A stretch of DNA of 33,344 nucleotides from an uncultured Candidatus Saccharibacteria bacterium (GTDB lineage: Bacteria > Patescibacteriota > Dojkabacteria > SC72): contig CAYXLF010000001.1 of the NCBI GenBank assembly GCA_964465815.1, forward strand, positions 1 through 33,344, in the 5' to 3' direction. Both the position numbers and the translations under genes were made by a program. Shown one piece after another: positions 9,207 to 32,361 of this stretch. How positions within the stretch are numbered: the first letter of the stretch is position 1; every line of letters begins with the position of its first letter. The notes beneath the pieces are model-generated. The model was not told the DNA's origin and searched no databases. It saw nothing but the letters and a program-made list of their open reading frames with translations.

Positions 9207-12200
9207 ATGAAAAAGTCTCTCAAGATACTGCTTGTTTCAATGTGTTCAATCCTTGTGACCTTCTCTTTATTTTGCATAATTCCTCTACTTGGAGGATTGC
9301 AGAAATCATATGCAGCCGATCCATTTTTGATAGATATAAATCCAGGTACGGGAGATTCTAATATTGACAAATTAGTTGATGTTAACGGAATTCTTTATTT
9401 TCGTGCAACTAATGAAACAAGTGGAGTAGAACTATGGAAATCTGATGGCACGGTTGATGGAACATCGATGGTGAAAGATATCTATGCTGGAAGTAATGGT
9501 GGATACCCAGATAACTTAACGAATGTTAATGGAGTCCTTTATTTTAGTGCAACCGATGGAACAAATGGAGTAGAGCTATGGAAATCTGATGGAACTGAAG
9601 CCAATACTGTTATGGTAAAAGATATTACTTCTGGAAGCGCAGATAGCAGCCCTAGTGAGCTTATAGATGTCGATGGTACACTGTTTTTTTGGATTGATAA
9701 TGCATTATGGAAATCTGATGGTACAGCAGATGGAACGTTATTAATTAAGAATATAACTTCAGGTACGGGATATAGTAGATTTGCAGGAGCTGCACTTGGG
9801 AGTAATTATATTTTTCTTAGGAAAGATGAGTTATGGATTTCAGATGGAACTGAAGCCGGAACGATTAGGATAACTAGCTTCTATGCGGCAGGGGCTGTGA
9901 CATTAGATTATGTAAATGGTGTACTGCTCTTTGTTGGAACTGCAACTAGCAGCTCAGATCAAGAAATATGGAAAACAGATGGGACAGTAGCGGGTACAGC
10001 GATACTAAAAAGTGGAATAGGTTTAAGTGGCTATAACGGGCCTTTTCTCCTTGATGGAAGCCTCTATTTTTGGATATATGGAAGTGTTGGGTATGAACTT
10101 TGGAAAACAGATGGTACAGAAGCTGGAACGGTGAAAATAGAGGATTCTGCATATTCGGTTTCTAGCTCGGAATACCCCGTAGTTATGGGACAAAATGCAT
10201 ATTTTATAGCTGCAGACGGAGATTGGGCCTATGGAGAAGAATTGTGGACTACGGATGGAACTGCTGGCGGGGCTCATATGGTAAAGGATATTTACAGTGG
10301 AAGTGATGCTTCAAGCATCTCTGAGATTACAGCCGTTAACGGCATGTTGTATTTTAATGCTACGGACGAGACAGAAAATGGATACAATACTGAACCGTGG
10401 AAATCTGATGGCACAGAGGAAGGTACTGTTATGCTGGCAAATTTAAATACAGCTTTGGAAGAGGGTTCTTATCCAGAAAATTTTACCAAGGTTGGAGATA
10501 TGCTTTTCTTTGAAGCTTGGACTAATGAATATGGTACTGAATTATACAGTTTAAGTACTGCGGTAGAACTTTCAACGGACTCATCTCTTTCTGCCCTAAC
10601 GGTCTCTGATTGCTCATTATCTCCTACTTTTGATGCAGCAGAGACCTCGTATACTTGTACGGTATCCCAATCGATTGGATCGGTAAATGTAACTGGGACA
10701 ACGGCTTTTGTGGGGGCGACACTGACGGTCGATGGACTAACGGCCACATCAGGCAGTTCGAAAAGAGTTAACCTAATGTCTGGAGCCAATGAAATCCCTG
10801 TAACAGTAACGGCAGAGGATGGAACTACGACAACCACTTATACAATTTCTATTACGAAACCCACCATAGATGGTGCTTCCTATTATACATATGACTCTAC
10901 GCTAGATTTTGGAAATAGTAGCACCCTGGAAAAACCATATATATCTACAATTGATAAAGATAATAATATCATTGTAGGAGGTTACTATACTGGGACTACG
11001 TCTATAGATTTTGATCCTGGTGAAGGCACAGCAATGAGTCCTGCATCTCCCAATCATTTCATATTGAAATTAAACAGTAACAGAGAATTTGTTTGGGTTA
11101 AATTCTTTAGGATCATTAGTGGCTCTTTTAACGGTTTAGAAACAGATTCTAATGGGAATATATTTCTCGCAGGAACATATACGGATTATTTAGATTTGAA
11201 TCCATCTGTAAGTGCAGAACAAATTGTTGAATCTGGTCACGATGGTGCTGGTTTCCTAATTAAGCTCAATTCTTCAGGAACTTATGTTTGGGGTAGAGCA
11301 GACGATTTCCCAACAGGAGAGGTGGGATTATGGAATTTAGATGAGGTAGCTGATAATAGCTGCTCTGATGGAGGAGATGTGTGTGATAACAGTGGCATTG
11401 CAAATGATGGCATTCTTTACGGTACTGCACCAACTGTTAGTACCTCGAATGGAAAAGGTAGAGACTTTGATGGTGTTAATGGAACCTATGTTGATATTGG
11501 GGATCTTTCTCTTTTTGAAAACCAAACATTTACAATTGAGGCGTATGTAAAGAAAGAAGGAACGTGTGGAGCCTATGATTATTGTTCTATCATGTCTAAA
11601 GGATCATCAACCAACAAGGGATTTGGTTTTGGTATCTCAAATGGTAAGCTACAAATTCGTATTAACGATATGGGTACCTCAGGGGTAGAGTATTTAGATG
11701 GAGCTACAGATCTTGCCATTGATACATGGTACTACGTTGCCGCAGTTGTTAATGGGGAAGAAAAAACATTTGAATTGTATGTAAATAACTCATTAGATGC
11801 TTCAGGCTCTTTTACCGAGAGAATCAATTATGCGGGTTCTAACCATGTAAAGATAGGAAATGCGAATGATGGAAATGATTTGCCATTTAATGGTGTTATT
11901 GATGGGGTGAGATATTCAAATGTTGTGAGAGATTCAACATATATACAGAGTATGAATTCCAAATATACGACCGGAAGTGGAAGTGATGTAGGTTCGTATA
12001 TAGCACCTATTACTAGTCAAATAGGTGGACAGATTTCTGCCAATATAGTAGTTGATGAAAATGGAAGTGTTGTGGTGGGGTACAGTTCTGGTGATGCCTA
12101 TTCTTCTCCAATTTTTAGGAAATTTGATTCATCTGGGAATATTTTATGGACAAAGGAATTTGATAATACTGGTAATTCATATTTTACATTTGAATCTATT

Positions 12201-14915
12201 GCATTAGATAGCCAAGAAAATATTTTACTTAACGGTTATGTTCTTGGTGGCTTTGCAGATTTTAATCCTGGTACAGGTGTAGACCAGAAAACCCCGACAG
12301 GTGGGAATAAAGCAATCTTTGTTACTAAGCTGACGACAAATGGATCTTATGTTTGGACACAACTTATAAATTCTGCAAGTACAACCTTTGGAATCAATTC
12401 GATACTTAAAACAGATGGGGATGATAATATTCTTGTTTTCTCCGATTTTTATGGTACAGTCGATCTGGATCCTGGGCTCCCGACAGTCGATGTCACTTCC
12501 ATAGGAAATAACGATCTTCTTTTGTTAAAGTTAAACCCGAACGGAGAATATATTTGGGGTAAAAACTTTGCTGGGGCTAGTTATGATGAGGCAATTGATT
12601 TAGCGGTAAATTCTGATAATAATATCTTTCTATCTGGGTCTTCCAACTCAAGCACTATTACAGTAGACTCTTCGACTTTCAGTTTAGAAAAGAAAACTTC
12701 TTATAGAGAGCCAATCTTCCTAGAATTAAATTCTTCTGGAGATTACGTATTCTCTAAGGTAATTCTTGTAAATTCAAGTTCTCATGCTGAGACATATAAA
12801 ATATTGTTTGATTCTAATGATGATATGTATTACACGGGTTATTATACGGGATCCCTAGATTTTAATGATGGGGAGATAGCCCTAGAGAAATCTGTTTTCA
12901 CATCTCCATCAGATAGAAACATGTTCTTAGCGAAATACAACAAAGTTTTATCAACAAATTCTTCATTATCTTTGCTAAGTACCTCTGGCTTCACATTATC
13001 TCCTGCATTTGATAGCAGTGTTACTTCATATACGGGTAGCGTAGATTTCGTAGTAGACTCAGTTGATTTTATTCCGATCAGTGCTTTCCCAGGCGCGAGT
13101 GTTTCTATAAATGGTGAGGATGTGATGTCAGGAAATCAATACGAAATTAGCTTAGCAACTGGAGTGAATAACATTTCAATTGTTGTTACCGCAGAAGATG
13201 GTGTAGCAACCTCTACGTATAGTATTGTGATCACGAGAAATACAGCTTCTACGGTTTCCTCATTATCAGCCTTAAGTATTTCAGGTTGTATGTTATCTCC
13301 AAGTTTTAGTAGTGAAGTCAAAGCATATTCGTGTTTTGTACCATCCACACTTGCTTCGATCAATGTCATACCAACGGCGTCATCCTCGATGGCAAAAATA
13401 TCAGTCCGAGGTTCAAGCGTAATTTCTGGGAATGCGCATAATATATATATAGCTACTGGTGTTACCAATATCCCTATAATTGTCACAGCAGAAGATGGCC
13501 TAACAACATCCACATATAACATTACACTTACAAAATCTGCAGAGGATGTTTCATCTGATTCCTCCCTTTCATCGTTAGAGATTCCTGGAGTCATATTATC
13601 TCCTGCGTTCGACCCATCAATTACTTCATATACAGGAAATGTTGATTTTTATATTGATTCTATTAATATTATCCCAACGGCTTCTTCCCTAGGATCAATT
13701 ATTACTGTAAATGGTGTTAGTGTAGATCAGGGCGATTCATATTCTGTTGATTTAGAAGTAGGAATAAACGATATACTAATAATGATTACAGGAGAAGATT
13801 CAGAAACGACTTCAACGTATAATCTGAAAATAATAAAAGCATCCTCTACTATAGAGGAACCAACACGCACCACCCCAGACTCTACAGCAAGGCAGGATAC
13901 ACCACTCAAAGATGTCCTTAGTGTTCTTACGATAAGTATCTCTGAAGCGAGTAAGTATGTAGAAAAAACAATTCAGGAAATTCCAATCTCAGAACAAACA
14001 TCCCGAAATATTACAGCTGCAACCCTGGCTTTGATAGCGGTATCTCCCGCAGTATCTGTAGGGCTAGGCAGCTCGTACACTATTTCATATATAGCTAAAT
14101 TCTTCTCAATGATACTTGCTCTCTTTGGTATCGGTAGAAAGAAAAGGAACTGCGGCCTAGTATATGATTCTGTAACTAAAGAACCGGTCAGTAATGCCAT
14201 AGTCAGAATATATTCAACTGATGGTACCCTTGTAGCTACAGAGGTAACTGATGTATATGGTATCTTTGAAACTGATATTGAAAGTGGTCAATACAGTATT
14301 GTAACTCAAGTAAACAATTACAAATTTCCATCGATGCTTATTACGGGTACTCAAGACTTACCGTATGAGAATATCTATGGAGGAGGAAACTTCAATTATG
14401 ATTCTTCATCAAGTATAAGCTACTCAATACCAGTGGATCCTTTGGACAAATCAAATGCAGAATATGCAAATACCATAACTAAGCATAAATTGATAAACCT
14501 AACATCTTCGGCTCTAAATATACTAATGTTCATAGGATTAGTATTCTCAATCGTTTCTTACATCAAACTAAACAGTACTTTGAACCTTATTCTTCTCATA
14601 ATATATGTATTTTTAATAATATTAGGAATGATAAGGAGAAGGCAAGCGAGGTACAGATTTGGTACAGTTACAGACCGCTCTGGAGACAGCAAAAATGGTA
14701 TAGAGTTAGGCCTAATGGAGACGGAGTTTAATAGAATCTATGCAAAGAGAGTAACCAATGATGAAGGTAAGTACAGATTTATAGTTCCAGGGGGAGATTA
14801 CAAACTAGTATCGCTGGATCCAGAATGCTCCTTATATGGGGAGGTACTGGTTAGTGGGCGAAGTAAAAAAATAATGGTTGTTTCTGAGGACTTAGTTGCT
14901 GAAAGAAGAGTTTAA
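9207..14915 (+). CDS. Giant mosaic cell-surface protein (1902 aa)
   Basis: Signal/anchor at aa 1-36, cleavage-like SYA-AD. About 9 ELWxxDGT repeats (aa 40-450). Cadherin-like beta-sandwich (aa 458-551). SBBP-type repeats (aa 556-700). LamG/concanavalin-like domain (aa 705-915). More SBBP repeats (aa 935-1245). Three tandem cadherin-like domains (aa 1250-1545). C-terminal hydrophobic helices interleaved with two carboxypeptidase-regulatory-like modules. Confidence 0.85.
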   Translation: MKKSLKILLVSMCSILVTFSLFCIIPLLGGLQKSYAADPFLIDINPGTGDSNIDKLVDVNGILYFRATNETSGVELWKSDGTVDGTSMVKDIYAGSNGGYPDNLTNVNGVLYFSATDGTNGVELWKSDGTEANTVMVKDITSGSADSSPSELIDVDGTLFFWIDNALWKSDGTADGTLLIKNITSGTGYSRFAGAALGSNYIFLRKDELWISDGTEAGTIRITSFYAAGAVTLDYVNGVLLFVGTATSSSDQEIWKTDGTVAGTAILKSGIGLSGYNGPFLLDGSLYFWIYGSVGYELWKTDGTEAGTVKIEDSAYSVSSSEYPVVMGQNAYFIAADGDWAYGEELWTTDGTAGGAHMVKDIYSGSDASSISEITAVNGMLYFNATDETENGYNTEPWKSDGTEEGTVMLANLNTALEEGSYPENFTKVGDMLFFEAWTNEYGTELYSLSTAVELSTDSSLSALTVSDCSLSPTFDAAETSYTCTVSQSIGSVNVTGTTAFVGATLTVDGLTATSGSSKRVNLMSGANEIPVTVTAEDGTTTTTYTISITKPTIDGASYYTYDSTLDFGNSSTLEKPYISTIDKDNNIIVGGYYTGTTSIDFDPGEGTAMSPASPNHFILKLNSNREFVWVKFFRIISGSFNGLETDSNGNIFLAGTYTDYLDLNPSVSAEQIVESGHDGAGFLIKLNSSGTYVWGRADDFPTGEVGLWNLDEVADNSCSDGGDVCDNSGIANDGILYGTAPTVSTSNGKGRDFDGVNGTYVDIGDLSLFENQTFTIEAYVKKEGTCGAYDYCSIMSKGSSTNKGFGFGISNGKLQIRINDMGTSGVEYLDGATDLAIDTWYYVAAVVNGEEKTFELYVNNSLDASGSFTERINYAGSNHVKIGNANDGNDLPFNGVIDGVRYSNVVRDSTYIQSMNSKYTTGSGSDVGSYIAPITSQIGGQISANIVVDENGSVVVGYSSGDAYSSPIFRKFDSSGNILWTKEFDNTGNSYFTFESIALDSQENILLNGYVLGGFADFNPGTGVDQKTPTGGNKAIFVTKLTTNGSYVWTQLINSASTTFGINSILKTDGDDNILVFSDFYGTVDLDPGLPTVDVTSIGNNDLLLLKLNPNGEYIWGKNFAGASYDEAIDLAVNSDNNIFLSGSSNSSTITVDSSTFSLEKKTSYREPIFLELNSSGDYVFSKVILVNSSSHAETYKILFDSNDDMYYTGYYTGSLDFNDGEIALEKSVFTSPSDRNMFLAKYNKVLSTNSSLSLLSTSGFTLSPAFDSSVTSYTGSVDFVVDSVDFIPISAFPGASVSINGEDVMSGNQYEISLATGVNNISIVVTAEDGVATSTYSIVITRNTASTVSSLSALSISGCMLSPSFSSEVKAYSCFVPSTLASINVIPTASSSMAKISVRGSSVISGNAHNIYIATGVTNIPIIVTAEDGLTTSTYNITLTKSAEDVSSDSSLSSLEIPGVILSPAFDPSITSYTGNVDFYIDSINIIPTASSLGSIITVNGVSVDQGDSYSVDLEVGINDILIMITGEDSETTSTYNLKIIKASSTIEEPTRTTPDSTARQDTPLKDVLSVLTISISEASKYVEKTIQEIPISEQTSRNITAATLALIAVSPAVSVGLGSSYTISYIAKFFSMILALFGIGRKKRNCGLVYDSVTKEPVSNAIVRIYSTDGTLVATEVTDVYGIFETDIESGQYSIVTQVNNYKFPSMLITGTQDLPYENIYGGGNFNYDSSSSISYSIPVDPLDKSNAEYANTITKHKLINLTSSALNILMFIGLVFSIVSYIKLNSTLNLILLIIYVFLIILGMIRRRQARYRFGTVTDRSGDSKNGIELGLMETEFNRIYAKRVTNDEGKYRFIVPGGDYKLVSLDPECSLYGEVLVSGRSKKIMVVSEDLVAERRV
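9324..10556 (+). repeat. Intragenic ELWxxDGT repeat array (about 9 units, probable beta-propeller)
   Basis: Recurring VELWKSDGTVDGT, VELWKSDGTEANT, ALWKSDGTADGT, ELWISDGTEAGT, EIWKTDGTVAGT, ELWKTDGTEAGT, ELWTTDGTAGG, EPWKSDGTEEGT. The DNA core tggaaatctgatgg recurs. Confidence 0.8.
12954..13841 (+). repeat. Three tandem cadherin-like beta-sandwich domains (about 95 aa each)
   Basis: Each unit has the pattern SSLSxLxxSG..LSPxFxxxxxSYtxxV ... I.V...VTAEDG..tSTY.I.I. A fourth copy lies at 10578-10859. Confidence 0.75.
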
Positions 14916-14932: not shown

Positions 14933-14941
14933 TGATATAAT
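14933..14941 (+). promoter_or_regulatory. Extended -10 promoter element upstream of lysS
   Basis: TGaTATAAT, about 36 nt upstream of the lysS ATG. Confidence 0.5.
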
Positions 14942-16585: not shown

Positions 16586-16661
16586 CCTCGTCTCGGCTTC
16601 ACACAGAGTGAATATCGGATCCCGTGGGACCAAATATTGTCTGAGCACCGAGTTAAACGAG

Positions 16662-16735
16662 TGGCCATGAAGGGATTCGAACCCTTAATACTCTGCGGTT
16701 ATTTGCAGTGCTCTTCCAGTTGAGCTATCAAAGCC
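16662..16735 (-). tRNA. tRNA-like gene with a non-canonical anticodon arm (atypical tRNA, pseudo-tRNA or tRNA-mimic module)
   Basis: Canonical D arm GCTC-AACTGGAA-GAGC and T arm AAGGG-TTCGAAT-CCCTT. Acceptor GGCTTTG/CATGGCC has a U.U mismatch. Three nt lie between acceptor and D stem. The anticodon arm is only 16 nt (CTGC-AAATAACC-GCAG). No CCA is encoded. Confidence 0.45.
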
Positions 16736-27987: not shown

Positions 27988-28558
27988 AGAAAGATGCAAT
28001 AAATTGTTAGAGAAATATATAACTACTCCATGGCTTAAATTCCATATGCGGGAGAGTGATCTAATAATGCAAGCAGTAGCAAAGAGATTAGGAGAAGATC
28101 CTGAGAAATGGGGATTATCTGGATTGTTACATGACCTAGATTTTGATTATGTTAATAAAGATCCACAATGGCATGTTATTAAATTTGATGAAATACTTGA
28201 AAAAGAAGGACTTAAGATAGGTATAGATATCGATGAGGATGTGTATCATGCCATCCGTGCTCACTATGAAGAACATCCAGACATTAAAGAAAAACGAGAA
28301 AATAATTTAGATTATGCGCTCTCAGCGTCTGAAAATCTTTCAGGATTTTTAGTAGCATGCGCTTTGGTACAACCAGATAAAAAAATAGCGAGTGTAGAAG
28401 TAGATAGCGTTACTAAAAAACTTAAGAAAAAAGATTTTGCAAAAGCTGTTAGAAGAGATCTGATACAAGATATAGAGAAAACAGGAATTTCCCTCGAAGA
28501 ATTTATACAGATAGCTTTAGATGTGATGAAGGCTAATGCATCAGAATTAGGTTTGTAG
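27962..28558 (+). CDS. HD-domain hydrolase (COG2316-like)
   Basis: 198-aa ORF with H ... LLHDLDFD ... H ... residues. The start may instead be M6 at 27977. Confidence 0.65.
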   Translation: MKLQKMITRERCNKLLEKYITTPWLKFHMRESDLIMQAVAKRLGEDPEKWGLSGLLHDLDFDYVNKDPQWHVIKFDEILEKEGLKIGIDIDEDVYHAIRAHYEEHPDIKEKRENNLDYALSASENLSGFLVACALVQPDKKIASVEVDSVTKKLKKKDFAKAVRRDLIQDIEKTGISLEEFIQIALDVMKANASELGL

Positions 28559-28575
28559 TAAAATATTCTCAATAA

Positions 28576-28652
28576 CGGGGCGTAGTTCAGATGGCTAGAG
28601 CGCTTGCATGGGGTGCAAGAGGTCGCACGTTCAAGTCGTGTCGCCCCGACCA
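28576..28652 (+). tRNA. tRNA-Pro (anticodon GGG), CCA encoded
   Basis: Manual cloverleaf. Acceptor CGGGGCG/CGCCCCG has the C1-G72 pair typical of bacterial tRNA-Pro. D arm is GTTC-AGATGGCTA-GAGC. Anticodon arm is CTTGC-ATGGGGT-GCAAG. T arm is GCACG-TTCAAGT-CGTGT, followed by ACCA. Confidence 0.9.
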
Positions 28653-28694
28653 GTTTTTGTAGAAATTGATTTTTTAAGTTTCTTTAGGAACAAG

Positions 28695-29222
28695 GTGAAT
28701 AAACATGATGCTGATAAGCTAATGCATGAGAAAGTTGTTATCCAAGAATTTCTCGAGTTGTATAACGAAGTAAACAACGTAAATATAGTCTTCCTTCGGC
28801 ATGGAGATCCCCTCAAAAAAGAACCAGATGCAGTATGCTCAGAAAATATGTATATAGAGATGGTGGATATGTTCTCGCGTAACTCTGAAGCTGCTGAAAA
28901 ATGGTCTCAGATAAGGCATGAGAAAAAAGAAAGTCCCTTAGATCTGGTACTGAATACAAATGAACGTATTCAAGAACTTATATATTTGAAATCTCAGAAG
29001 CTTGATAATGGTCATTATGATGGAGTATTACCAGGAAGTAAGATTGTATTGCTTTGTAATGTAGAAAGTTTTGCAGTATCCGATCCTGAAGTTGCTTCGT
29101 TTATTGATTATTTCTACTCATTTTCTAAAGATCATATCTTCGAGAAGTACTTTGATGAAGTTTGGCTTATATGGAAACCTTCATTTTCTACTGTGAAGCA
29201 CATCAAAAAGATAGAGATTTGA
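28695..29222 (+). CDS. Hypothetical protein (about 175 aa)
   Basis: The track ORF starts at 28608, inside tRNA-Pro. More plausible starts are GTG 28695 (AGGAA 5 nt upstream) or ATG 28722. No confident domain was recognised. Confidence 0.5.
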   Translation: MNKHDADKLMHEKVVIQEFLELYNEVNNVNIVFLRHGDPLKKEPDAVCSENMYIEMVDMFSRNSEAAEKWSQIRHEKKESPLDLVLNTNERIQELIYLKSQKLDNGHYDGVLPGSKIVLLCNVESFAVSDPEVASFIDYFYSFSKDHIFEKYFDEVWLIWKPSFSTVKHIKKIEI

Positions 29223-29242
29223 GATGATGCCACTTTGATATG

Positions 29243-30271
29243 TTAATCTAGTAGGTCTGTTATTGATTTCCTCTGATTAATCCTACTTATTGTATCTGCA
29301 AAGTAGTTTGCAATAGATACCTCTTTAAACCATGGGGATTTTTCTAAGAATTCTTTTGAATGATACGTACTATCTGTACCAATAACCATATCTAAAAATC
29401 CTTTTTCATATGCTTCTTGAAATCTTTCCCATGCAGGACCATTGAAGAGAGCGTGTGTGCAAACAGCTATTACTTTCTTTGCTCCCATATTTTTTGTCTC
29501 TTCCAAAGCTTTTATCAATGTGCCTCCTGTGCAGATCATATCATCAACAATGTATACATTCTTGTCTTTTACATCTCCCAATATTGATATCTTATCTACA
29601 GTATTTGCTTTGCAATAATTTCTAACTTTATAGGTAAATGCAATATCTGTTCGAAGGGATTGTGCATAGTGATTAGCTCGTTTTGCACCACCTAGATCAG
29701 TTGGCATTATGACTGTATTCTCATTATCCTTTATTATTCTTCTTAATGTCGGGATTATGACATAGCTTCCCAAGAGATTATCAATCTTTGCTCTCCTAAA
29801 GAATCCTTGTATTGCAGAGTTATGAAGATCAATTGTAATTATATGGTCAACAGATCCATCGCCTTCTAATTCATATGCTATTCTTGCAGCTGTAATTCCT
29901 TCTCTTCCAGATTGTTTGTCCTGTCTTGCATATGGGAAAGAGGGTAGTACTGTGGTTATTCTTTCTGCATCACATCTTCTACAGGTGTCAACCATTGTAT
30001 ACAGTGCTCGCAAGTTTTGATCTGTACATCTTCCATCTGTGTGATTTTCACAGTCTTGGATTATGAACACGTCTTTACCTCTGATACTTTCGTTTATGAC
30101 AGTTTTTAATTCTGTACTTGCAAAGTGAACCTCCTCTGAATCTATTAAATGTACTTCATTGCCATATTCTTTTCTAAGGGATTTAACTATTTTCTTTGCG
30201 AAATTTAAGCCAGAATTACATGCGAGTACTGATAGGGGGCCCTTAGAGGTTGGAGACATAAAGAGGTGCAT
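29243..30271 (-). CDS. prs: Ribose-phosphate pyrophosphokinase (PRPP synthetase)
   Basis: 342-aa ORF with DLHNSAIQGFF and the PRPP-binding loop VDDMICTGGTL. The start may be M5 at 30259. Confidence 0.9.
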   Translation of the reverse strand: MHLFMSPTSKGPLSVLACNSGLNFAKKIVKSLRKEYGNEVHLIDSEEVHFASTELKTVINESIRGKDVFIIQDCENHTDGRCTDQNLRALYTMVDTCRRCDAERITTVLPSFPYARQDKQSGREGITAARIAYELEGDGSVDHIITIDLHNSAIQGFFRRAKIDNLLGSYVIIPTLRRIIKDNENTVIMPTDLGGAKRANHYAQSLRTDIAFTYKVRNYCKANTVDKISILGDVKDKNVYIVDDMICTGGTLIKALEETKNMGAKKVIAVCTHALFNGPAWERFQEAYEKGFLDMVIGTDSTYHSKEFLEKSPWFKEVSIANYFADTISRINQRKSITDLLD

Positions 30272-30318
30272 TAAATTAACATATATAGTGTACTACGAAT
30301 ATGTGAAATTAAGAAATA

Positions 30319-30327
30319 TGGTATAAT
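30319..30327 (+). promoter_or_regulatory. Extended -10 promoter element (TGgTATAAT) with no ORF downstream
   Basis: TGgTATAAT at 30319-30327. The predicted start near 30334 leads into the structured non-coding island. Confidence 0.5.
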
Positions 30328-30333
30328 ACGGAT

Positions 30334-30563
30334 AGGAAACAACGCCTTACACTAAGCGAAAAGTGATTTACAACCGGCCATCTGGGTCGGTTTTTTGTTA
30401 AACCGACCATGCTCATGTACCGGAGGATCACCGGTACATAAGCTAGAGTATTGGAAGGTGTCTGATCAACACCCAAGATATTCTGAGCAACTTCTAAGGG
30501 CAGTATGCAATTGCTACTGTGCGGGAGAAGATCGGTTAACGGTCGTATCCCGCTTCCCTTAGA
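30334..30563 (+). ncRNA. Candidate structured RNA island (unknown family)
   Basis: GC-richer than the flanks and has no ORF. Elements: terminator hairpin 30372-30392, competing hairpin 30385-30408, perfect 9-bp hairpin 30415-30439, hairpin 30457-30473, and a three-way junction 30493-30563. G.U pairs fit only the plus strand. Confidence 0.45.
30372..30399 (+). terminator. Intrinsic terminator-like hairpin inside the RNA island
   Basis: AACCGGCC (30372-30379) pairs with GGTCGGTT (30385-30392). This gives 8 bp including one G.U, with a 5-nt loop, followed by TTTTGTT. Confidence 0.55.
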
Positions 30564-30573
30564 TGAGGAGTAG

Positions 30574-30582
30574 TGATATAAT
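30574..30582 (+). promoter_or_regulatory. Extended -10 promoter element upstream of the 30607 ORF
   Basis: TGaTATAAT ends 24 nt before the ATG, implying a very short leader with no Shine-Dalgarno. Confidence 0.45.
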
Positions 30583-30606
30583 CGACCTCGTTTCGTCTTA
30601 CAAAAT

Positions 30607-31023
30607 ATGAGTAACTATACAATAACAGAAGGTCTTGTTTGTGAATTAGACCGTATGGAAAATTTAACAGAATCTGAATTCAGAGCTACTGCGGTAGTGT
30701 CCCTTTTTGGTATGGAAGAAACTAATTTCCAAATCTGTGTTGATGAAGAAGATTTTGACTCAGACAATGTAGTAAATGCTTTGAGAAGTGGATGTATCGA
30801 GAATACATGTTTTAATGTTTATCCAATATATAATCCTAATGATCTTATATTGGTATCGGATTATTCCAAATCAGAGATAGAGAAAAGTAAGAAAAAGATA
30901 GAAAATATTTATATGATTTCAAGCGAGGATTGCCCCAATGAGCATATTGTTATGCTTACGCTTAAGGATCTACGAGCAGATGGACGTGTAATGTTGGTTG
31001 CTCAGCACGTCGTTGAAAGATAA
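30607..31023 (+). CDS. Hypothetical acidic protein (138 aa)
   Basis: Intact ORF with no recognisable motif. Confidence 0.5.
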   Translation: MSNYTITEGLVCELDRMENLTESEFRATAVVSLFGMEETNFQICVDEEDFDSDNVVNALRSGCIENTCFNVYPIYNPNDLILVSDYSKSEIEKSKKKIENIYMISSEDCPNEHIVMLTLKDLRADGRVMLVAQHVVER

Positions 31024-31081
31024 TTGACCTTCCCCCAAGTATTTGTCACAATATACCTATTAATATTTCACTAATATAGGA

Positions 31082-31289: not shown

Positions 31290-31709
31290 ATGGATGATTG
31301 TATTTTTTGCAAAATTGTAAAAGGAGAGATTCCTTGTTTTAAAGTGTATGAAGACGACAACTATTTGGCGTTCTTAGATTTATCAAACTTCACAGAAGGG
31401 CATACATTAGTAGTACCTAAGAAACATTACAGATTTGTATGGGATGTGGATGATATCGAAGGATACTCTAATGTGGTTAAGAAAATATCAAATCATTATA
31501 GAAATAATCTGGGGTTTGCATATGTTGATACTCTTACCTTTGGAAGGATGATTCCACATGCACATGTACATTTGGTTCCTCATAATGCAGACTCTGGAGA
31601 TTGGGAAAAAGCGCTGGAGAAAATAGGGGAGCTACAGGGGGATTCAACAAGGAGATTATCGAAGGAAAAAGGGGAGGAAATAGCTAATAAATTTAAAATG
31701 CAAGGCTAA
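31290..31709 (+). CDS. HIT-family (histidine triad) hydrolase
   Basis: N-terminus reads CIFCKIV and the histidine triad is HAHVHLVPH. Start placed at MDDCIFCK (31290), which has GGAGGA 5 nt upstream. The track ORF starts at 31272. Confidence 0.88.
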   Translation: MDDCIFCKIVKGEIPCFKVYEDDNYLAFLDLSNFTEGHTLVVPKKHYRFVWDVDDIEGYSNVVKKISNHYRNNLGFAYVDTLTFGRMIPHAHVHLVPHNADSGDWEKALEKIGELQGDSTRRLSKEKGEEIANKFKMQG

Positions 31710-32083
31710 GCCCCTTTGTAAAGCTTTTGTAATTTTTTATCAAATGTTATCAATCTGGCATTATTCTCTTTTGCAAGAAAAAGTATGATTGAATCTATGG
31801 CTGTAAATGTGTTTGGAAGGTTTCCTGCGAAGTCTATATATCTTATGAGATTACTATCATCCAGAGTAGGTATTTCATCTGCTGCTTTCAATGTTGCTTT
31901 TATTGTGCACTCCCTTGCCCGTTTATTTCTTGTGTTACTCATTAGCTCGGCAATTACCATCGCAGGTATTAATATTTTAGAACTCTTTAAATTCTTCGCA
32001 ATATCTACTGCCAAGAGATGATTTATATCCTCTTCGTTGAGCAACGAACAAATGAAATTTGTATCTAAAAGAGACTTCTCCAT
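31706..32083 (-). CDS. vapC: PIN-domain toxin (VapC-like)
   Basis: Reads MEKSLLDTNFI ... AELM ... DSIILFLAKENNARLITFDKKL, with acidic residues at PIN positions. Start placed at M16 of the track ORF. Confidence 0.8.
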   Translation of the reverse strand: MEKSLLDTNFICSLLNEEDINHLLAVDIAKNLKSSKILIPAMVIAELMSNTRNKRARECTIKATLKAADEIPTLDDSNLIRYIDFAGNLPNTFTAIDSIILFLAKENNARLITFDKKLQKLYKGA

Positions 32084-32361
32084 TCTTTGTCTCTTTGTTC
32101 TCTTATATGTTTTGCACTGTTCTTGCATTTTGGATCAGAATATTTATAGTCTTTGACTTTCTCAAAAAAACTCTGCTTTTTCCCTACTTTTGCAAGATTT
32201 TTTTCTTTAGTGTTAGTGTAATCCTTAAAACTTGTTAATACCGCGATAGGATCTTTCATTTTTTTGTATCCTAGATAAACAATTCCTCCATCTTTAACAA
32301 AGGACATTGCTTCGGAAGGCTTCTTGTAAAATTCGGTTGTGCTGTAAGTCTTGCTTTTCAT
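32065..32361 (-). CDS. Antitoxin, Phd/YefM-like N-terminus
   Basis: 98-aa ORF directly upstream of vapC, overlapping it by 19 nt. The N-terminus TYSTTEFYKKPSEAMSFVKDGGIVYLGYKK ... PIAVLTSFKDY fits the Phd/YefM pattern. Confidence 0.65.
   Translation of the reverse strand: MKSKTYSTTEFYKKPSEAMSFVKDGGIVYLGYKKMKDPIAVLTSFKDYTNTKEKNLAKVGKKQSFFEKVKDYKYSDPKCKNSAKHIREQRDKEWRSLF

Follow-up and report, generated by a model that had tools for sequence, protein, structure and literature searches.

A previously undescribed structured RNA beside an uncharacterised protein gene in Candidatus Dojkabacteria

Introduction

What occupies the gap between prs and hyp138, two divergent genes on a 33,344-nt stretch of DNA from an uncultured bacterium (contig CAYXLF010000001.1; the whole stretch is called the window below)? 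An earlier note, made from the letters of the sequence, had described two hairpins and a compact three-way junction in this gap, had argued for a functional RNA that it could not match to any signature it knew, and had implied a link to prs, with PRPP or nucleotides as candidate ligands. We find that the gap encodes a real structured RNA of the + strand, previously undescribed, single-copy and without an Rfam family. Comparison of homologous loci indicates that this RNA has two parts, a 5′ part of invariant sequence that contains a terminator-like hairpin and a 3′ part in which base pairs covary.

Results

The gap folds into a series of helices

All of the helices listed in the earlier note are present where it placed them (Table 1). 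When folded with ViennaRNA, the three-way junction is both the minimum free energy (MFE) structure and the centroid of its + strand region, at -36 kcal/mol compared with -21.7 +/- 3.2 kcal/mol for dinucleotide shuffles (n = 200, z = -4.5); 0 of the 200 shuffles fold as stably. The - strand of the junction region gives a weaker fold (-29.3 kcal/mol, z = -3.35), and the 279-nt + strand stretch, taken entire, has a z-score of -4.6. Both hairpins extend further than first described. The reported 9-bp hairpin, in which ATGTACCGG (30415-30423) pairs with CCGGTACAT (30431-30439) around the loop AGGATCA, lies within the longer stem of hairpin H1, and the pairing of GGTGT (30457-30461) with ACACC (30469-30473) around CTGATCA forms only the inner stem of hairpin H2, whose outer stem had been overlooked. 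Also missing from the first description were an upstream terminator-like hairpin, a hairpin alternative to it and a promoter-like box.

Within the junction, helix P1 (30491-30500 and 30556-30565) is built around a core in which TCTAAGGG (30493-30500) pairs with CCCTTAGA (30556-30563). Junction helix P2 (30501-30519, CAGTA(T)GC-AATT-GCTACTG) has an invariant lower part with a conserved bulged U, and a tip that reads either GC-AAUU-GC or GAU-GCAA-AUC across homologues. Junction helix P3 (30521-30553, GCGGGA...TCCCGC) encloses an inner stem, GATCG-GTTAA-CGGTC. The linkers between these helices are the same in all six sequences compared below.

The 8-mer at the core of junction helix P1 recurs nearby: the window holds five copies of TCTAAGGG/CCCTTAGA, all within 1.6 kb (28935-30563), against a shuffle mean of 1.2. 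Two of them form the helix itself, two lie in the prs coding region and one in a 204-aa open reading frame (ORF). We considered this cluster as a possible signal and set it aside as probably due to chance; the coding copies are not conserved at the nucleotide level in relatives.

Table 1. Positions of the RNA element, its predicted parts and the features around it, in window coordinates
Feature	Position	Strand	Remarks
Host gap of the element	between prs (-, 29243-30271) and hyp138 (+, 30607-31023)		335 bp
Promoter-like extended -10 box P1	30319-30327	+	TGGTATAAT; TGNTATAAT kept in 6/6 loci; DNA upstream diverges
Structured RNA element	~30334-30565	+	~230 nt; the junction reported earlier is its 3′ part
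Putative RNA start	about 30334	+	predicted, downstream of promoter-like box P1
Invariant 5′ segment	about 30334-30349	+	(A)UAGGAAACAACGCCUUA, about 19 nt; predicted single-stranded; identical in 6/6 sequences
Hairpin P0	30350-30365	+	CACU/AGUG; stem invariant; loop 4-8 nt, free in length and sequence
T1, intrinsic-terminator-like hairpin	30372-30399	+	arm A 30372-30379, arm B 30385-30392, loop AUCUG, then UUUUGUU
Alternative hairpin B:C	30385-30408	+	GGUCGGUUU/AAACCGACC; segment C 30400-30408; excludes T1
Hairpin H1	30411-30443	+	13-bp stem with one C.A mismatch; loop WGGAUCR; includes the reported 9-bp hairpin
Hairpin H2	30444-30485	+	9-bp outer stem, internal loop, 5-bp inner stem, loop YYGAUCA
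Three-way junction	30491-30565	+	junction helices P1, P2, P3; linkers of 0, 1 (U) and 2 (UU) nt
Promoter-like extended -10 box P2 of hyp138	30574-30582	+	TGATATAAT; kept in all RNA-bearing loci and in L022
hyp138	30607-31023	+	138 aa, small acidic protein; always immediately downstream of the RNA

Compensatory substitutions and strand

The window and five related loci (L001, L020, L031, L023 and L025), which together represent about three deep lineages, were aligned by hand (alignment A5), with gaps padded with N to keep MAFFT from altering the result. Folded singly, each of these six sequences gives the common series of helices, including the three-way junction. Standard pairs make up 94.4% of the 427 cells in this alignment. 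Fourteen pairs are changed on both sides, compared with 4.5 +/- 1.6 in 500 shuffles (0/500 reach 14) and 0-2 in six slid controls, and the covariation score is 0.188 vs 0.110 +/- 0.012. The compensated pairs fall in H1 (two), the outer and inner stems of H2 (two and three) and junction helices P1, P2 and P3 (two, one and four). RNAalifold, given a plain MAFFT alignment, recovers the same helices with 12 compensated pairs. These comparisons indicate that compensatory substitutions preserve H1, H2 and the three-way junction. The earlier note had named a lack of covariation in the junction helices as a refutation; covariation is found there and in both hairpins, and the changes across the six sequences support its proposal of a functional structured RNA, on the + strand.

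Some of these substitutions can be followed step by step. H1 shows the series CCGG/CCGG, CCAG/CUGG, CUAG/CUAG, along with one U.G and one C.A site, around a loop in which GGAUC is invariant. The stems of H2 hold several G.U pairs beside their five compensated pairs, and at the tip of junction helix P3 unrelated sequences have been swapped in with pairing retained. Only 4 of 335 nt distinguish L001 from the window, and one H2 pair, changed on both its sides, accounts for two of them.

The alignment also bears on strand. G.U cells number 24 at 12 sites, each a mismatch on the opposite strand, while A.C cells number eight at five sites; 94.4% of cells are paired when read as the + strand vs 90.6% as the - strand. 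Because this G.U bias, the pairing percentages, the promoter-like box and the terminator-like hairpin all lie on the + strand, we assign the RNA to that strand. No reading frame is open in all six sequences, which gives no sign of coding potential.

Among the columns left unpaired, the six-sequence alignment contains no further stacks or pseudoknots with covariation. The only pairing possibilities there join invariant nucleotides, among them 5′ UAGGAAAC with GUUUUUUG and the GAUC sequences of the hairpin loops with each other. A long-range 5′-GAAAC/GUUUC-3′ pairing proposed by RNAalifold was rejected, as it comprises only 5 bp, is invariant and is lost in L031 and L025.

How strongly is the sequence held? 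Between the window and L020, the four-fold degenerate sites of the two flanking genes differ at 23 of 74 positions (31%), compared with 7 of 192 (3.6%) in the noncoding core (30372-30563). Purifying selection thus acts far more strongly on the RNA element than on the synonymous sites beside it. In the comparison with L025, identity of the flanking proteins is 30-70% (84% for ferredoxin), yet the RNA hardly varies over its first ~75 nt apart from one hairpin loop, and the body of the neighbouring tRNA-Pro differs at one position, its 3′ CCA end aside. The 5′ domain of the RNA is as conserved as this tRNA. The CCA of tRNA-Pro is itself encoded in the window copy and not in the L025 copy.

Promoter-like boxes, a terminator-like hairpin and its alternative

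Box P1 may work as the promoter of the RNA, judging from its position and conservation (Table 1). Within the window, TGNTATAAT occurs at 14933, 25094, 30319, 30574 and 33332. All five sites are intergenic. Four are directed at the gene or RNA that comes next, and the fifth is so close to the window end (4 nt) that its target is out of view. Judging by this distribution, extended -10 boxes seem to serve as the chief promoter signal of the genome. No obvious Shine-Dalgarno sequence precedes prs, hyp138 or fdx.

Hairpin P0 follows the invariant 5′ segment, and its loop reads AAGCGAAA, AUAGAA, GUGUGAA or GUGA across homologues. Next comes T1, which has the hairpin and the U tract on the transcribed strand that characterize intrinsic (Rho-independent) terminators and is predicted to act as one. 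Its stem has eight pairs, five of them G-C, with an energy of -11.4 kcal/mol, and closes a 5-nt loop; the tail TTTTGTT makes six consecutive T if two T of the stem are counted. In a terminator scan, T1 is among the two best sites in 20 kb, the other coinciding with the end of a gene. Neither its stem nor its loop varies among the six sequences. In a classical transcriptional riboswitch, a conserved aptamer precedes an expression platform of terminator and antiterminator, both ahead of the ORF; here a ~40-nt invariant segment precedes T1, the B:C alternative lies past the U tract, and the large junction domain comes after the terminator-like hairpin.

In the alternative hairpin B:C, segment C base-pairs with arm B of T1 and with the U's that begin its tail. 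Its nine pairs are formed in 100% of cells, and the substitutions in it are solely C-to-U opposite G. With energies of -8.8 to -13.1 kcal/mol vs -11.4 for A:B, the two hairpins are near-isoenergetic; in folds of the whole RNA the MFE structure contains B:C in five of six sequences and A:B in L025.

The terminator scan places no terminator between the junction and hyp138. Instead, the RNA runs up against box P2, whose -35 position (30554-30559, TTCCCT) overlaps J3/1 and the 3′ strand of junction helix P1. The 7-nt spacer from this helix to GTGATATAAT is fixed in length and free in sequence, and the distance from the 5′ anchor to box P2 is 249-252 nt in all copies.

The RNA accompanies hyp138 in a sub-lineage of Dojkabacteria

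Among the products of the window are RNase Y, TrmD, GreA, several aminoacyl-tRNA synthetases and a DUF3048 protein; its G+C content is about 36%, and its prs is 83-93% identical to the prs of metagenome-assembled genomes (MAGs) labelled Candidatus Dojkabacteria, WS6 or 'Saccharibacteria'. By these comparisons the window is part of a Patescibacteria chromosome. An archaeal reading (TATA boxes, leaderless genes, C/D or H/ACA small RNAs) was dropped, since RNase Y, TrmD and GreA mark a bacterium.

Each of the six RNA copies lies immediately upstream of, and co-oriented with, a homologue of hyp138. In the window, hyp138 is followed by a gene for a 68-aa ferredoxin and then by a HIT-family gene, and in every contig long enough the order after the RNA is hyp138, ferredoxin, (NUDIX) HIT. 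What precedes the RNA is more variable. The RNA of L001 is near-identical to that of the window, and L031 (hyp138 homologue 67% identical) has the same order of prs, RNA and gene. L020 (87%) carries the RNA after a different + strand gene and L025 (30%) directly after tRNA-Pro, both with no prs adjacent; in L023 the hyp138 homologue is 37% identical. One further lineage (L022 and L035) has hyp138 with its promoter-like box and no RNA.

For the prs side, upstream regions were taken from 12 GTDB Dojkabacteria-type genomes, ten of whose loci include sequence upstream of prs. The RNA is absent there in all ten relatives (L003-L008 and L010-L013) by nhmmer, blastn and a covariance model, and close relatives that have no RNA have no hyp138 either. 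Because the RNA is kept in L020 and L025 where prs is not adjacent, and is absent beside prs in these relatives, we regard it as tied to hyp138 and not to prs. The comparison of loci thus indicates a genetic link between the RNA and hyp138.

Wider searches left this distribution unchanged. With the covariance model, each locus that bears the RNA yields a single copy, and neither the rest of the 33-kb window nor ~190 kb of related loci yields another. Retrieval of loci anchored on ferredoxin (P0015, P0016, P0020) brought only RNA-less arrangements, and a metagenome search with the hyp138 alignment brought no contig beyond one already known. No match to the RNA was found among viral contigs (searched with an invariant 20-mer) or among phages and plasmids (blastn). 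A miniature inverted-repeat element or a REP/BIME-like repetitive or mobile element does not fit a sequence that is single-copy and fixed in position relative to hyp138 in diverged genomes. TRF found no tandem repeats in the RNA. The RNA is restricted to a sub-lineage of Candidatus Dojkabacteria (Patescibacteria).

The prs-ferredoxin interval (30272-31081 in the window; also L003-L008 and L036-L041) is a hot spot of gene content among close Dojkabacteria, holding nothing, an ABC transporter, rubrerythrin, both of these, or the RNA with hyp138. The arrangement with both ABC transporter and rubrerythrin adds a 115-aa ORF that may be a remote relative of hyp138 (hhalign probability 56%).

The protein itself gives few leads. 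Relatives of hyp138 amount to five other clusters among collections of 5.8 billion and 1.8 billion proteins, and no Pfam, NCBIfam, PHROG or PADLOC family matches it. AlphaFold models reached a pLDDT of 43 with three sequences, and, as a confident model, a pLDDT of 76 and a pTM of 0.74 with six. Comparison of the predicted model with the PDB (Foldseek) gave no significant neighbour (E at least 0.028, TM at most 0.38), and no nuclease-like or RNA-binding structural neighbour among the results.

The RNA matches no known family

Is this a known RNA in an unfamiliar host? Rfam 15 gave no match over the region when the whole window was scanned at gathering thresholds, and nothing at E <= 10 when 30200-30700 was scanned alone. 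Scans of the L025, L023 and L020 homologues returned chance-level matches only (11.8-17.2 bits, against gathering scores of 45-87). The scans of small regions are the relevant negatives, as the whole-window scan at gathering thresholds also missed tRNA-Pro. The latter, a tRNA-Pro(GGG) at 28576-28652, scores 53.8 bits when 28500-28750 is scanned alone; fast filters lose true matches on long inputs. The failure of the earlier note to place the RNA is therefore borne out by the Rfam search, and literature text searches found no report of a structured RNA of Dojkabacteria or Patescibacteria.

Several classes were compared by their defining features. Hammerhead ribozymes carry a core of CUGANGA, GAAA and NUH in their junction strands. 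With junction strands of 0, 1 and 2 nt there is no room for a hammerhead-type core here, and no Rfam ribozyme, hammerhead or other small self-cleaving kind, matches. An RNA that sequesters CsrA in the manner of CsrB or RsmZ would be expected to show several GGA in its hairpin loops along with a terminator, and by eye the alignment A5 has only two conserved GGA, in 5′ UAGGAAAC and in the H1 loop GGAUC; the H2 loop reads GAUCA, and the loops of junction helices P2 and P3 vary and have no conserved GGA. CRISPR-like, tracrRNA-like and CreA-like RNAs find no support, as there are no cas genes in the 33 kb.

Partial likenesses exist. In EutX/Rli55-type noncoding RNAs (ncRNAs), an early conditional terminator selects between a short and a long form, and tandem hairpins with similar loops in the long form bind a protein. 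The RNA described here likewise has an early terminator-like hairpin, proposed short and long forms and tandem hairpins with similar loops. Unlike those RNAs, it has no AdoCbl aptamer, its heptaloops (WGGAUCR and YYGAUCA) are not ANTAR-type hexaloops, no ANTAR or two-component genes lie nearby, and its long form would run into a protein-coding gene.

The HMP-PP (thiS motif) riboswitch is a very short and highly conserved sequence fused to an ordinary intrinsic terminator near the 5′ end of the transcript (PMC6478431). It is a precedent for a sensor of <60 nt with a terminator among its conserved nucleotides (PMC6478431). The RNA described here differs in having no Rfam sequence or structure match and a gene context unrelated to thiamin, and in the 170 nt of covarying structure that follow its terminator-like hairpin, a part that HMP-PP riboswitches are not known to have.

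A further likeness is to the orphan structured-RNA motifs found by comparative genomics, for example by Narunsky et al. 2024 (PMC11109978). Like these, the RNA is short, narrowly distributed and intergenic, contains a three-stem junction, shows covariation from few representatives and lies upstream of one gene family; unlike them, it joins a terminator domain of invariant sequence to a covarying one and reaches into the next promoter-like box. It is one more narrowly distributed orphan motif among hundreds.

Discussion

What might such an RNA do? The explanation we favour, at a probability of roughly 40%, is that it serves the hyp138-ferredoxin-HIT unit as a conditionally terminated leader or ncRNA. 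The RNA would be transcribed from its own extended -10 box P1, and its first ~60 nt, comprising the single-stranded segment, hairpin P0 and terminator T1, would act as an invariant sensor or attenuator domain. Most transcripts from P1 would probably end at T1 to give a ~60-nt RNA. A factor (protein, RNA or small molecule) that recognizes the invariant 5′ domain could block the A:B stem and permit read-through, or T1 may simply be leaky. On read-through, segment C would capture the 3′ arm of T1 to form B:C, and the RNA would go on to form H1, H2 and the junction, with a GAUC:GAUC contact between loops perhaps making the fold more compact. Polymerase would then continue across box P2 into hyp138-ferredoxin-HIT, and the long form might carry a platform for binding a protein or ligand.

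Several points weigh against this explanation. The transcript ends, the promoters and the activity of T1 are predictions. Because L022 and L035 keep hyp138 and its own promoter-like box where the RNA is absent, hyp138 does not need the RNA. T1 stands before the large structured domain, which is not the classical layout of a riboswitch. T1 and the 5′ segment are invariant, and covariation therefore cannot test them. The comparison draws on six sequences from about three deep lineages, in an alignment fitted by hand to the structure, and one H1 site (C.A in four sequences) would pair on the - strand only. Finally, hyp138 is acidic and its predicted model has no recognizable RNA-binding fold.

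The principal alternative is a free-standing, trans-acting ncRNA that is co-inherited with hyp138 and does not control it in cis: either a small RNA (sRNA) of ~60 nt, from box P1 to T1, with the 5′ segment as its seed or protein site, or a ~230-nt scaffold of a ribonucleoprotein (RNP). We consider this less likely than not, and a little less likely than conditional termination. It would account for the promoter-like box and the good terminator that the RNA has of its own, for a 5′ domain as strongly conserved as tRNA-Pro, and for the separate promoter-like box of hyp138 that survives where the RNA is absent. The chance-level Rfam matches over P1-T1, too, are all to terminator-ended enterobacterial sRNAs, a resemblance of shape only. 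However, no target complementary to the 5′ segment was found in the 33 kb, where the best duplex (-11.5 kcal/mol) falls within the background tail, and a large covarying domain lies beyond T1, with no terminator of its own. Nor does independence from hyp138 sit easily with 6/6 copies immediately upstream of its homologues and with the loss of RNA and gene together in relatives.

Could the RNA instead be a partner of the hyp138 protein, as an antitoxin-like molecule or an RNP subunit? In type III toxin-antitoxin loci (ToxIN), a promoter, a structured RNA, an intrinsic terminator and a small protein gene follow one another, the antitoxin RNA consists of tandem repeats, and the toxin is a ToxN/AbiEii-type endoribonuclease. 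The locus resembles these in its order of RNA, terminator and protein gene, in the strict adjacency and joint loss of RNA and gene, and in the patchy, accessory-like distribution of the pair among close relatives. The analogy breaks down in that the RNA has no tandem repeats by TRF, the acidic hyp138 has no PADLOC, Pfam or PHROG match, toxin or other, and no nuclease-like or RNA-binding structural neighbour, and one lineage keeps the gene without the RNA. Moreover, the terminator-like hairpin stands in front of most of the RNA and not between RNA and gene. We therefore think such a partnership unlikely.

An element acting at the level of DNA (operators, a recombinase core site, or a single-stranded origin or nick site formed by + strand hairpins) seems less likely again. 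H1 is an almost perfect 13-7-13 palindrome, GATC lies in both hairpin loops, three copies of AACCGRCC fall within 37 bp, the junction and the -35 position of box P2 share nucleotides, and G.T wobbles are tolerated in single-stranded DNA too. Against these features, covarying non-palindromic junction stems with indels confined to loops are unlike protein sites in duplex DNA, and the G.U pairs at twelve sites would be mismatches in a duplex palindrome. The element also sits in the chromosome as a single copy, no gene for a recombinase, relaxase or Rep protein lies near it, and it resembles no phage or plasmid.

The link to prs implied by the earlier note, as a - strand riboswitch or leader sensing PRPP or a nucleotide, is barely credible: the element does lie in the divergent prs/hyp138 gap in the window, L001 and L031, and its - strand also beats shuffles (z = -3.35), but the RNA lies on the strand opposite to prs by its G.U statistics, promoter-like box and terminator-like hairpin, persists in L020 and L025, which have no prs beside it, is missing from the region upstream of prs in L003-L008 and L010-L013, and has no ykkC/PRPP or other Rfam match.

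Returning to conditional termination, a bolder version would make the RNA a new class of two-domain riboregulator, in which a ~60-nt sensor with an embedded terminator gates a 170-nt junction RNA that acts with or controls hyp138, itself a new protein family, and ferredoxin/HIT, either as a new riboswitch class or as a small RNP. We hold this to be doubtful. The RNA is in any case a candidate for a new Rfam family, a test case of an unusual order of parts, in which the terminator precedes the structured domain, and a handle on an uncharacterised protein family always encoded beside it. Dojkabacteria have tiny genomes, are not grown alone and carry little noncoding DNA. Because it is a 230-nt noncoding element under tRNA-like constraint in so small a genome, the RNA is likely to be important to the cells that carry it.

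Other features of the window

A lineage-specific ORF of ~165 aa follows tRNA-Pro in the window (28608-29222, +) and occurs in L020 (1-504) and L031 (85-612), with no family match. Its listed start lies inside the tRNA, and translation probably begins at the Met at 28725; in L020 this ORF is the gene directly upstream of the RNA.

Beyond the HIT gene, 31706-32361 (-) holds a 140-aa gene that overlaps a 98-aa ORF upstream of it and is inserted between the HIT and hydrolase genes. The counterpart of the 140-aa gene in L037 has a PIN domain, so that the pair looks like a VapBC-type toxin-antitoxin; the window copy has no PADLOC match. Homologues are present in L003, L008 and L037 and absent from L004, L005 and L031.

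A tRNA-like gene at 16661-16735 (-) is reported by ARAGORN as 'tRNA-???' with a two-base anticodon, 'ta', and scores 29.8 bits with the Rfam tRNA model. By eye its anticodon arm reads CUGC-AAAUAACC-GCAG, with an 8-nt loop, and it may be a pseudo-tRNA or an unusual decoder. Finally, 9207-14915 (+) encodes a protein of 1902 aa with four cadherin-like domains, a laminin-G/concanavalin-like domain and a CarboxypepD_reg-like domain, which is likely a giant surface adhesin.

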